Positions 29,915-32,326 of a stretch of DNA of 64,000 nt are shown one piece after another. Made by a program: the position numbers and the translations under genes. Within the stretch, counting starts at the first letter, position 1, and each line of letters opens with the position of its first letter. Source of the DNA: Oscillatoriales cyanobacterium (GTDB lineage: Bacteria; Cyanobacteriota; Cyanobacteriia; Cyanobacteriales; Laspinemataceae); assembly GCA_011390955.1 (NCBI GenBank), contig JAABRM010000001.1, positions 238,694-302,693 of the forward strand, given 5' to 3'. Under the pieces are notes generated by a model. That model was given only the letters and a program-made list of their open reading frames with translations, searched no databases and was not told where the DNA came from.

Positions 29915-32326
29915 ATGAGTGATTACGCTTACCAAGTCGGCGGTAGCTTGCCGGTAGATGCTCCCAGCTATGTGCAACGGCAGGCAGATGAAGACCTTTA
30001 TCAAGGGTTAAAAGCGGGAGAGTTTTGCTATGTGCTCAATTCCCGACAAATGGGTAAATCTTCGTTGCGGGTGCGGGCGATGCAACGGTTACAAAAATCG
30101 GGAATTCTTTGTGCGTCGATTGATTTAACGGCGATCGGTACTTCAGAAATTACCCCAGAAGAATGGTATGCAGGGGTAATTGACAGTATTGTGGGCAGCT
30201 TAGATTTATATAATGTGTTTGATTTAGATGAATGGTGGGAAACCCAGGGACGGTTGTCAAATTTACGCCGCTTCAGTAAATTTATTGAGCAAATTCTGAT
30301 CCATCAAATTCAGCAACCATTGGTGATTTTTATTGATGAAATTGATAGTGTTTTGAGTTTAAATTTTAAAGTTGATGATTTTTTTGCGGCGATTCGGGCT
30401 TGCTATAATAAACGGGCAGAACAGCCCGCATTGGGGCGACTGACTTTTTGTATTTTGGGGGTGACGACTCCTTATGATTTAATTCAGGATAGAAATCGCA
30501 GTACCCCATTTAATATTGGCAGAGCGATCGCTCTCACCGGATTTCAGTTCCATGAGGCAGCACCTTTAGCCCAAGGATTACGGCAAAAATTTGCCCATGC
30601 GGATCTTATTTTAAAAGAGGTGTTGTCTTGGACTGGAGGACAGCCTTTTTTAACTCAAAAAGTTTGTCGAATGTTGGGCAATGCCACCCCGCCCACCACG
30701 GAGAAAACTTGGGCAAATTGGGTGGAAAAAATAATCCGTCAGCAGGTGATTGATAATTGGGAATCCCAGGATGAACCGGAACATTTACGCACTATTCGCG
30801 ATCGCCTAATTTGGCGGGGCGATCGCCAAGGGAAAATCCTGCAATTATATCAGCAAATTTTACGCCAAGGGTCAATTAGATCGCAGCAAAAGCCCGAATA
30901 TTTAGAGTTGCAACTCACCGGCTTAGTGGTGAAACACAATAGTAACTTAAAAGTATATAACCGCATCTATGGTGAAGTTTTTAATGAAACTTGGTTAGCA
31001 TCGGTTTTCAAAGAAAGTTTTACGATAAGTCATCCCCCAAATCCGGTCAATGATGTGACAATTAACTACAGCCAACTCCGGGATTTGTTGGCGACTAAAC
31101 AGTGGCAAGCAGCGGATCGAGAAACCGCAGCAATTATGCTGAAAATCGCTGGTAAAGAATCCGCCGGTCGATTAACAGGTCAGGATATCCAAAAATTTCC
31201 TGGGGAGGAACTTGGCAGAATTAACCAATTGTGGTTGGATTTTAGTGATGGGCGGTTTGGCTTTACGGTACAAAAACAGATTTGGGAACAAGTGGGGGGA
31301 TTGGTCGATTCAGATGATTCTGAAACCTATTGTCGTTTTGCCGATCGCGTTGGTTGGCGCAAAAATGGCGCTTGGTTGGACTATTCCCAACTGAGGTTTA
31401 ACAGCAATTCTCACACCACTTCTCCCCTGGGACATCTTCCTCGCGTTATGGTAGTTTTTTGGCCAACGGTTGCCGGTGATGAGACTTTCACAGAAAGGGA
31501 TTTTTTAGAGGCGATCGCGCAAGCTGAAAACTGGACAGAAGAGGAAATTGGCGATTTATTTGAAGGATGTGTTTATCTTTTTAATCGCCTGAAGGATTGT
31601 GGTTTAGAATCTAGTTCAGAGTTACCAGAAAATCCCCGCCTAGATTCATCACCTTCTCTTGCGGATGATGCCACAACTGGGGAATCAAAAAATATTGTCG
31701 TTAATTCACAAAAAACAATGACTCGCGTTCCATTAGTTTATGCCAAGCATCAGGATTTAAACTCAGGTTTCTTATATGAAGAGATGATTCATAATTGTTG
31801 GCTGAGAATTTATCTAGGAGATATTACGGATTTAGTTGTTGATGCGATCGTCAGTTCTGATGACAGATATCTGACAATGGGCGGAGGAGTATCGGCCAAA
31901 ATCAGACGAGTGGGCGGCGATGAAATTAAAAAAGAAGCTCAATTATTAACTCCTTTATCTTTAGGTGATATTGCCATTACTAACGCCGGAAATTTGGCGG
32001 CCAAAAAAATATTTCATGCAGCGGTGATTGATTGGGAACCCCGACAAAAGCCAACGGAAGATCCGATTGAAAAATCAGTGGTAAACTGCCTGGATTGTGC
32101 GAATTATTTAAAATTTAAAACTATTGCTTTTCCTTTATTGGGAACTGGCAAAGCCCGGTTCAGTTTTATGCAAGTTTTTGATATTATGGTAAATGCGATT
32201 ACTGCCAAACTTGGCAGCGACCTTGGCAGCGAAACTCAAAGTATTGAGGAGGTGGCGATCGTCATTTTTGGGGATATATCTTTGGCCGAATATTTAATTT
32301 CAACATTCAAGGCTAGAAAAAGCTGA
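29915..32326 (+). CDS. Cyanobacterial 'AAA-like domain' protein fused to GUN4-like domain and C-terminal macro (ADP-ribose-binding) domain
   Basis: [24 protein letters not shown]...[15 protein letters not shown] is the AAA-like N-terminus (PF14516-type). [12 protein letters not shown]...[10 protein letters not shown]...[11 protein letters not shown]...GHLP is GUN4-like. [14 protein letters not shown]...[13 protein letters not shown]...[17 protein letters not shown] is macro-like. The TTG at 29843 is likely not the start. Confidence 0.8.

Follow-up and report, generated by a model that had tools for sequence, protein, structure and literature searches.

A STAND-like AAA_35 NTPase with GUN4-like and macro domains in an Oscillatoriales cyanobacterium: a candidate sensor subunit without a neighbouring partner gene

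Paired sensor and helper NLRs, such as plant RGA5/RGA4 and animal NAIP/NLRC4, divide recognition and output between two paralogous NTPases. Among macro domains, the hydrolytic MacroD type is recognized by the motif N-x6-GG[VLI]-D, which supplies a catalytic Asn and a catalytic Asp, together with an aromatic residue in loop 2 (G-[VIA]-[YF]-G). A gene that touches on both themes lies at positions 29,915 to 32,326 of a 64,000-nucleotide stretch of an Oscillatoriales cyanobacterium (assembly GCA_011390955.1, contig JAABRM010000001.1, positions 238,694 to 302,693), referred to below as the window, and encodes an AAA_35 NTPase followed by a GUN4-like domain and a macro domain. In the Thoeris system, macro domains sense ADP-ribose (ADPR) or imidazole adenine dinucleotide (IAD) made by TIR domains and drive oligomerization (PMC11204291), and GUN4, Macro, and TIR are all among the modules that Kaur et al. 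listed for conflict systems in cyanobacteria (PMC7159879, PMC8195603).

The protein is interpreted here as an orphaned subunit of the sensor type in a STAND-like AAA_35 system, in which small-molecule binding by the GUN4-like and macro domains would gate ATP-dependent assembly and output would come from paralogues elsewhere; this interpretation is given a probability of about one half. The protein is already in public databases and, as one of many similar cyanobacterial proteins, is no surprise alone. More interesting is the family picture, a large group of STAND-like NTPases with sensor-fused and effector-fused types, often encoded as overlapping gene pairs.

Domain layout and the NTPase module

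An open reading frame (ORF) extends on the forward strand from a TTG codon at 29843 to 32326, and its in-frame ATG at 29915 gives an intact protein of 803 amino acids. This ATG is the better start because homologues begin 0-9 residues ahead of the conserved Y.YQVGGSL and because a strong psbA terminator hairpin (29776-29799) with a T-run lies just upstream. Pfam hmmscan placed AAA_35 (PF14516) at residues 10-357 (113.7 bits, E 1e-32, cut-off 27, profile positions 4-330 of 331), GUN4 at residues 380-511 (127 bits, E 8e-37), and Macro at residues 650-758 (77.2 bits, E 1.3e-21), all far over the gathering cut-offs. The initial annotation, made from the letters of the sequence, had read AAA-like, GUN4-like, and macro domains at this position; the three Pfam calls agree with it, the motifs it quoted are all found in the translation, and the lack of a significant macro profile match, which it had named as the refuting outcome, did not occur. 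The closest protein (P0001), encoded on a 7.2-Mb chromosome of Planktothricoides raciborskii, is 93% identical and annotated as "GUN4 domain-containing protein".

An alignment of full-length sequences prepared for a whole-protein model matched the macro region to the GUN4 domains that AAA_35-GUN4 proteins carry and was discarded for this reason, and two domain-level models were built instead. No sequence-level match to solved structures was found for the AAA_35 module. Its AlphaFold model, based on 53 homologues, reached a predicted local distance difference test (pLDDT) score of 89 and a predicted template modelling (pTM) score of 0.85, and combines a P-loop α/β core with a helical lid and a winged helix, the tripartite layout of STAND proteins. 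Structural relatives of this model, with the comparison figure for each in brackets, are the archaeal Walker ATPases 2qen and 2fna (19.4 and 18.9), the wheat NB-ARC resistosome (15.8), CED-4 (15.6), a TIR-NLR (14.8), MalT (14.1), ORC/Cdc6 (about 12-14), and bacterial Avs3/4/5 (about 10-12). The P-loop motifs G47-K48-S49-S50 and D141-E142-I143-D144 are intact and invariant or nearly so in the 53-homologue alignment (Table 1). Together, the fold of the model and the conserved Walker A and B motifs therefore make AAA_35 a STAND/ORC-like nucleotide switch, and this copy of the NTPase looks catalytically competent from its motifs. STAND proteins usually carry an effector domain in the same polypeptide, mostly at the N-terminus; none is present here unless Macro counts as one, and the NTPase begins at about residue 10.

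The GUN4-like and macro domains

Following the NTPase, the GUN4-like domain matches the solved GUN4 proteins of T. elongatus (1z3x, E 4e-14) and Synechocystis (1y6i, E 1e-10). When compared with the residue list of Verdecia et al. (PMC1084334), 13 of the 14 'greasy palm' positions of Synechocystis GUN4 (SynGUN4) are conservatively kept, the exception being W178, which is replaced by Ala, and a hydrophobic pocket for a planar ligand is plausible from these residues. The GUN4 region of the second domain-level model is poor (pLDDT 25-60, with only two close homologues covering the region), and no structural conclusion is drawn for this domain or for domain packing. The PADLOC profile PD-T4-6 (PDLC04062) also matches the domain, over profile positions 305-436 of 450 (E 8e-37). 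GUN4-like domains are therefore also present in a defence family outside cyanobacteria, namely the E. coli anti-phage family PD-T4-6. The literature on that family consists of survey papers, which give no mechanism for the GUN4-like part, and a paper on GUN4 evolution does not mention fusions.

Between the GUN4-like and macro domains, two predicted linker helices at residues ~527-561 (pLDDT ~60) precede a Ser/Pro/Asp-rich stretch, with pLDDT <50 at residues ~563-602, that is probably disordered.

Alignments show that the macro domain keeps the adenine-contact residue D643 and both glycine-rich loops (G656-G658; G743-T-G745). It belongs to a subfamily with the motif D-x-IV-SSDD-x-YL-x-M-GGGVS; classical members in the same alignment read VNAAN…GGGVA together with STGIFGF. 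Throughout the subfamily the MacroD determinants are replaced, the catalytic Asn by Asp, the catalytic Asp by Ser, and the loop-2 Phe or Tyr by Gly or Ala. The protein in the window has SSDD…GGGVS where the MacroD type has NAAN…GGGVD, and the loop-2 aromatic is missing (GTGKARF), with KAR in the lineage of the window where most of the subfamily has xG[GR]. A check of the catalytic residues against MacroD and Af1521, suggested in the initial annotation, has thus found all three determinants replaced. Judging by these residues, the domain is likely to bind an ADP-ribose-type ligand and unlikely to perform canonical macro hydrolysis. The 'reader/eraser' role first suggested is thereby narrowed towards the reader, and the eraser half is disfavoured.

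By sequence, the best solved relative of the macro domain is the uncharacterized TTHA0132 (2dx6, E 6e-22), followed by PARP14, PARP9, and macroH2A, and MacroD1, MacroD2, and Af1521 score much lower. The macro part is the only confident region of the second model (pLDDT >90), and a Foldseek search with it placed macroH2A1.1 at the top (~5e-17, target-normalized template modelling score 0.85), with OiMacroD, Af1521, and TTHA0132 closely behind and MacroD-type matches at 1e-15. NCBIfam models of ADP-ribose-binding proteins and O-acetyl-ADP-ribose deacetylases match at E 1e-15 to 5e-21, with scores of 30-75 bits against cut-offs of 200-315, for example 75 bits against a family cut-off of 246.

Partner genes, recurrence, and genomic setting

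AAA_35 proteins fall into two types split by their fused domains, a sensor type and an effector type, which are often encoded adjacently or are translationally coupled. Among its 120 best homologues, the NTPase type to which the gene described here belongs is fused to WD40, TPR, GUN4, Macro, PAS, GAF, or CHASE2, and none of these 120 carries CHAT or TIR. A search with the partner-type NTPase returned 120 proteins of ~520-600 residues, in which the fused domain was CHAT (83/120), cyclase (13/120), kinase (2/120), TIR (1/120), or trypsin-like (1/120), and WD40, TPR, GUN4, or Macro in 0/120. Eight distant AAA_35-Macro loci offer 10 kb or more of flanking sequence on either side (L004, L006, L008, L009, L090, L091, L092, L011), and every one of them has one or more further AAA_35 genes within 10 kb. 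In all distant genes with both Macro and GUN4 (L004, L006, L093, L094/95), an upstream partner gene overlaps by 4 nt and encodes a divergent AAA_35 NTPase with a class III cyclase at its N- or C-terminus. A cyclase-TIR-AAA_35 gene neighbours the AAA_35-Macro genes of L011 and L092, and an EAD4-AAA_35 gene lies directly upstream in L009 and L090. The identifiable partners of Macro/GUN4 sensors are cyclase or cyclase-TIR proteins in six of six cases, although 69% of partner-type proteins carry CHAT. The partner cyclases were considered as Pycsar members; PycC models match weakly (1e-8 to 1e-10), and membership is not claimed.

Five loci (L009, L090, L091, L092, L011) have three to five AAA_35 genes in a tandem array, in which every gene is fused to something else, the fused domains being EAD4, HATPase_c, Macro, WD40, GAF, Sll1247, and cyclase-TIR. 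These arrays suggest multi-sensor clusters built around one NTPase family.

The architecture itself is recurrent. AAA_35 and Macro occur together in ~22 of the 120 best full-length homologues, and six non-fragment proteins among the 120 combine AAA_35, GUN4, and Macro in varying order: AAA_35-GUN4-Macro as in the window (P0001, P0002), AAA_35-TPR-GUN4-Macro (P0048), AAA_35-Macro-GUN4 (P0018, P0058), and AAA_35-Macro-GUN4-GUN4 (P0023). A short macro query gave 64 mostly fragmentary proteins, and an exhaustive macro-domain search was used instead, which yielded 6754 cluster representatives at E ≤ 0.001 and 58 at E ≤ 1e-30. Unrelated proteins that carry 3-5 macro domains in tandem inflated the top ranks and were set aside, and the nearest 63 representatives with a single macro domain were classified; their extra domains are AAA_35 (10), GUN4 (9), CHAT (3), TIR (2), cyclase (1), and kinase (1), and two of the 63 are AAA_35-WD40-GUN4-Macro proteins. 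Genomic loci add HEAT-Macro and Macro-metallophosphatase fusions of the same subfamily. GUN4-Macro is a recurrent pair, and given such varied fusions the triple one represents just one of the many arrangements into which a mobile macro module has been shuffled. To call it unusual, as had been done at the outset, was an overstatement; the counts among homologues, which bear on the survey proposed at the same time of how often AAA_35/GUN4 proteins carry a macro domain, show the combination to be recurrent in filamentous cyanobacteria. A scan of species-representative genomes with the generic pattern [ST]IAFP[LA][LI][GA][TS]G is not usable as a frequency survey; among the matches listed, most are stand-alone classical macro genes from many phyla, and L010-L016 and L018 are informative.

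A connection to TIR domains had also been hinted at in the initial annotation, on account of a multi-TIR gene in the window. This 3xTIR-WD40 gene (9667-13758, forward strand) encodes 1363 residues with a long WD40 array, matches PADLOC ThsB models down to E 2e-26, and is ~52% identical to the TIR genes beside orthologues, yet it is a paralogue 16 kb away. In the two closest relatives, 3xTIR-WD40 genes (1602 and 1340 residues) follow downstream at distances of 1.4 and 7 kb, the order being target gene, 101-residue gene, GDSL lipase, and two 3xTIR-WD40 genes, all on one strand. Members of the macro subfamily are fused directly to TIR in P0149, P0214, and P0311, and cyclase-TIR-AAA_35 genes stand next to AAA_35-Macro genes at the two loci named above. 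The hint has thus gained indirect support from adjacency, fusions, and neighbours. TIR genes are abundant in these genomes, so the connection is offered as a circumstantial one that may or may not be functional.

The effector-bearing partner AAA_35 gene that is usual in relatives is missing from the window, an absence that was not visible to the initial reading, and in the two closest relatives the 10 kb around the gene are likewise free of a second AAA_35 gene. A membrane cyclase at 40347-41597 was considered as the missing partner and rejected, as it is without an AAA_35 module and resembles cyclases only in a generic way (E 2e-8). Three related genomes, in which the protein is 90-93% identical, preserve the orphan arrangement. 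The ratio of nonsynonymous to synonymous substitution rates (dN/dS) is 0.25 against locus L001 (P. raciborskii CP159837) and 0.25-0.37 overall against relatives, with 0.15-0.6 per folded domain and a maximum of 0.91 in the linker against locus L096; at dN/dS ~0.25 the gene is therefore maintained by purifying selection.

The 3' end of the gene has a separate history. Nucleotide identity of 95% to L001 and to the metagenomic locus L003 ends at 32304, 22 nt ahead of the stop codon. In a sliding comparison the identity switches over 32131-32310, and from ~32130 onwards L096 matches at 87-95% in 60-nt steps and at 92-95% over downstream blocks, with synteny running on to 37317. The gene order in L096 (WD40-GUN4-Macro, cNMP-binding gene, cytochrome c, DUF6932, HTH, vault-protein homologue) is the same as in the window. 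Taken together, these matches therefore make the window gene a mosaic, whose 3' end and flank derive from a second context. The GUN4-Macro cassette (31049-32383) is found at 92% nucleotide identity in two different gene scaffolds. Between the GUN4-Macro gene and cytochrome c, L096 has an intact cyclic nucleotide monophosphate (cNMP)-binding-protein gene of 127 residues, of which a relic is left in the window (Table 1).

The site of the gene is prone to recombination, and the region around it has many conflict-type genes. These comprise a PIN/DUF2281 pair, an NB-ARC protein, an extracellular contractile injection system (eCIS)-core protein, a DUF6932/HTH pair, the 3xTIR-WD40 gene, and a NACHT-like plus WD40-TPR pair; psbA, cytochrome c6, and malic enzyme are among the housekeeping genes. 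The psbA (D1) copy at 28630-29712 (forward strand) is divergent, with substitutions such as DGLMLGICG. The psbA segment (28132-29831) is absent from the L001 locus and present in L003, so it is a strain-level indel. A psbA operon that includes the gene was considered and rejected, in view of the terminator between them and the strain-level absence of psbA.

Several other features of the surroundings were recorded. Tandem repeats at 28092-28456, between the DUF2281 gene and psbA (TTGG x11, GGGGAAC x5, GAGAAGA x4.6, CCTGTTC x13.9, and an 11-mer x3.7), resemble the short tandemly repeated repetitive (STRR) sequences of filamentous cyanobacteria. The PIN toxin and DUF2281 antitoxin pair occupies 27341-28013 (reverse strand), and at 7795-9457 of L001 this pair is partly duplicated and rearranged, with extra 73- and 81-residue genes and a 232-residue DUF2281 fusion. 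Downstream, at 33272-34239 (forward strand), overlapping genes for DUF6932 (148 residues; PADLOC PDC-M63A, E 7.5e-14) and HTH_3 (174 residues) are kept in L096 and look like a toxin-antitoxin or defence-candidate module. A major vault protein (MVP) homologue of 870 residues (34739-37351, forward strand; Vault repeats E 3e-67, MVP shoulder E 1e-51) shares 95% nucleotide identity with L096. On the reverse strand, the eCIS-core protein (637 residues) adjoins an 864-residue protein without Pfam or PADLOC match (20305-25015), and a NACHT/STAND-like ATPase (597 residues; PADLOC STAND_TPR and Avs1b, ~1e-11 to 1e-12) is followed by a WD40-TPR protein of 870 residues (51012-55823), a pair that may be a split STAND gene.

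Table 1. Coordinates (window positions) of the gene, its domains and motifs, and adjacent features
Feature	Position	Strand	Basis
psbA terminator hairpin and T-run, bidirectional; splits psbA from the gene transcriptionally	29776..29811	+	terminator scan
AAA_35-GUN4-Macro protein, complete coding sequence including stop codon	29915..32326	+	ORF list and Pfam
AAA_35 NTPase module, residues 10-357 (P-loop core ~20-206, helical lid ~212-300, winged helix ~305-355)	29942..30985	+	
Walker A/P-loop, residues 41-50 (G47, K48, S50)	30035..30064	+	G47, K48, S50 invariant in 53 homologues
Walker B, residues 136-144 (D141, E142, D144)	30320..30346	+	E142, D144 invariant, D141 nearly so (53 homologues)
GUN4-like core, residues 380-511, GHLP motif at end	31052..31447	+	Pfam, solved GUN4 matches
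Linker, residues 512-625 (two predicted helices, then Ser/Pro/Asp-rich low-confidence stretch)	31448..31789	+	structure model
Macro domain, 'SSDD' subfamily, residues 626-803 (Pfam core 650-758)	31790..32323	+	Pfam, TTHA0132 match, model
Macro loop 1, D643-AIV-S647-S648-D649-D650-RYLTM-G656-G657-G658-V-S660 (adenine-contact Asp and diphosphate loop)	31841..31894	+	alignments, TTHA0132 comparison
Macro loop 2, residues 738-749	32126..32161	+	alignment
Recombination junction in 3' end of the gene (upstream L001/L003-like, downstream L096-like)	32130..32310	.	sliding identity
cNMP-binding-protein gene relic, last 27 codons	32598..32678	+	tblastn, 81% identity over 27 residues, E 2e-10

Interpretation and relation to known systems

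As an orphan sensor-type subunit, the protein would work as follows. The N-terminal module, with its P-loop core, helical lid, and winged helix, would act as an ATP/ADP-driven switch. The C-terminal arm would carry a GUN4-like hydrophobic pocket of the tetrapyrrole-binding type, together with a macro domain for binding, but probably not hydrolyzing, an ADP-ribose-type nucleotide. By analogy with NLR and Avs STAND proteins and with Thoeris macro effectors, ligand on the arm may release autoinhibition and allow nucleotide exchange by the NTPase, followed by oligomerization. In most lineages output would be produced in trans, by a second, divergent AAA_35 protein with a CHAT protease, class III cyclase, TIR, or kinase domain that is encoded next to the sensor gene. 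The role would most likely lie in stress or anti-phage signaling and not in chlorophyll biosynthesis.

A wider proposal is tentative, with the balance of probability clearly against it. AAA_35 proteins may form a two-component STAND-type immune or signaling system of filamentous cyanobacteria, whose sensor subunits (WD40, TPR, GAF, GUN4-Macro) would hetero-oligomerize with effector subunits (CHAT, cyclase, TIR, kinase), like paired NLRs. The GUN4-Macro arm would then receive an ADP-ribose-derived nucleotide, possibly made by TIR, and a tetrapyrrole-type ligand, turning on cyclic-nucleotide output, and the gene in the window would be free-standing, with its partners elsewhere in the genome.

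A number of observations weigh against the interpretation as a sensor subunit. No second AAA_35 gene that could supply the output is present in the 64-kb window, and the putative physical pairing of sensors with effectors is suggested by gene adjacency and the likeness to paired NLRs. SynGUN4 Arg214, which is essential for porphyrin binding (PMC1084334), has no identifiable equivalent: HMMER aligns the domain with 1y6i and 1z3x as far as L210 or its equivalent, beyond which an ungapped reading puts Phe at position 214, and ~35 extra residues follow GHLP compared with solved GUN4. In the macro domain, the KAR change in loop 2 is peculiar to the lineage of the window and may or may not alter the putative binding, and the loss of the MacroD catalytic residues would be compatible with some other hydrolytic chemistry. 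Finally, PF14516 appears in no searchable paper, a search for "AAA_35" gave only false matches, and there is no experimental study of any member; the AAA_35 family, its two-type split, and the SSDD macro subfamily are not described in the searchable literature.

Given that the protein has no other enzymatic domain, the macro domain could itself be the output, an ADP-ribosyl hydrolase or signal-degrading 'eraser' that is gated by the NTPase and the GUN4-like domain and either removes phage or toxin ADP-ribosylation or ends TIR-derived ADPR signals. Kaur et al. class Macro among ADP-ribose-processing effector domains (PMC7159879), and the subfamily is also fused to TIR, CHAT, kinase, and metallophosphatase; in relatives, however, the enzymatic effectors are on a separate partner protein. 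NCBIfam ADP-ribose-binding and deacetylase models do match, but with scores far under the family cut-offs, and although the structural neighbours include OiMacroD, Af1521, YmdB, and MacroD2, it is the non-catalytic macroH2A1.1 macro domains that rank first. With the three MacroD catalytic determinants replaced consistently across the subfamily, an eraser is considered unlikely. A stranded relic, that is, a sensor subunit that lost its partner by rearrangement and is drifting to loss, is more improbable still. The missing partner gene, the recombination junction that alters the C-terminus, the neighbouring cNMP-binding gene reduced to 27 codons, a loop 2 that departs from the subfamily consensus, and dN/dS above typical core-gene values would all fit such decay, yet the 803-residue ORF is uninterrupted and retains all conserved motifs of the NTPase and the macro domain, dN/dS is well below 1 in each domain (0.17-0.40), and conservation of the orphan arrangement in three genomes is hard to reconcile with it.

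The gene could also encode a housekeeping regulator of tetrapyrrole or photosystem biogenesis, a GUN4 paralogue coupling chlorophyll-precursor levels and NAD/ADP-ribose metabolism to D1 turnover, and this would account for its place directly downstream of psbA. A distance of 200 nt separates the gene from the psbA copy ahead of it, which has the same orientation, and cytochrome c6 follows downstream, but psbA has its own strong terminator, its segment is missing from L001 though the gene is 95% identical there, and downstream genes differ among close relatives. Sensing of tetrapyrrole status is the function that Kaur et al. suggest for GUN4 domains (PMC7159879), and the core pocket of GUN4 is largely conserved; nevertheless, neither the N-terminal bundle seen in true GUN4 nor the essential Arg214 can be identified, chlorophyll-synthesis genes are linked at 0/10 distant loci, and GUN4-like domains are also found in the PD-T4-6 anti-phage family. 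Of the explanations considered, this one is held to be the least probable.

A sensor subunit of an AAA_35 system therefore remains the preferred interpretation. If the family picture proves true, it would carry over to bacteria the sensor/helper pairing known from NLRs of plants and animals, provide a second case after Thoeris of a macro domain as receptor for ADP-ribose-type immune signals, and give GUN4-like domains a role outside chlorophyll synthesis. In this family, a non-catalytic-looking macro subfamily and a GUN4-like domain recur jointly as a sensor arm.

Compared with known STAND NTPases (NB-ARC/CED-4/Apaf-1, plant NLRs, MalT, Avs, and the archaeal PAB2304 and SSO1545), AAA_35 is a separate Pfam family, and the NTPase described here is at the extreme N-terminus with no effector ahead of it. 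The effector of the AAA_35 system is apparently carried by a second, divergent paralogue, and its sensors are small-molecule-binding domains instead of repeat arrays. Paired NLRs are alike in having side-by-side paralogous NTPases, one with recognition domains and the other with the output domain; in AAA_35 the effectors are CHAT, cyclase, TIR, and kinase, the putative pairing is seen as gene adjacency, and the gene in the window, unlike paired NLR genes, is without a neighbouring partner.

The GUN4 cofactor of Mg-chelatase (1y6i, 1z3x) shares a homologous core with the GUN4-like domain, including most hydrophobic palm residues and GHLP. The cofactor has an N-terminal helical bundle that is not identifiable here and an alpha7 region with Arg214 and Arg217 that is not alignable, whereas the GUN4-like domain sits in a multidomain NTPase with no ChlH link evident; chlH, chlI, and chlD were found neither in the window nor in the related loci examined. 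For the PD-T4-6 anti-phage family, the match is limited to the C-terminal region and leaves the rest of the profile uncovered, which excludes the protein from membership.

The best sequence and structure matches of the macro domain are TTHA0132, macroH2A1.1, and the PARP14 readers, which are similar in size and have the ADP-ribose-binding loops in common with it. TTHA0132 has NAAN and GAGVA where the subfamily has SSDD and GGGVS, and TTHA0132, macroH2A, and the PARP readers are stand-alone or linked to chromatin or PARP proteins, whereas the macro domain in the window is fused to an NTPase. PADLOC returned no ThsA match for the protein, and no ThsB-like gene is adjacent to it in the window, the nearest TIR gene being that 16 kb away. 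The macro domain of the Thoeris TM-macro ThsA has unique insertions that bury the distal ribose, which are not seen here, and ThsA has a transmembrane (TM) effector, whereas the protein in the window is without a TM segment and carries its macro domain on a STAND-like NTPase. The likeness to ThsA (PMC11204291) lies in the use of a macro domain that in Thoeris is a non-catalytic receptor for a TIR-made ADP-ribose-type signal, and is probably non-catalytic here, and in the TIR genes and fusions that recur around the macro subfamily described here.

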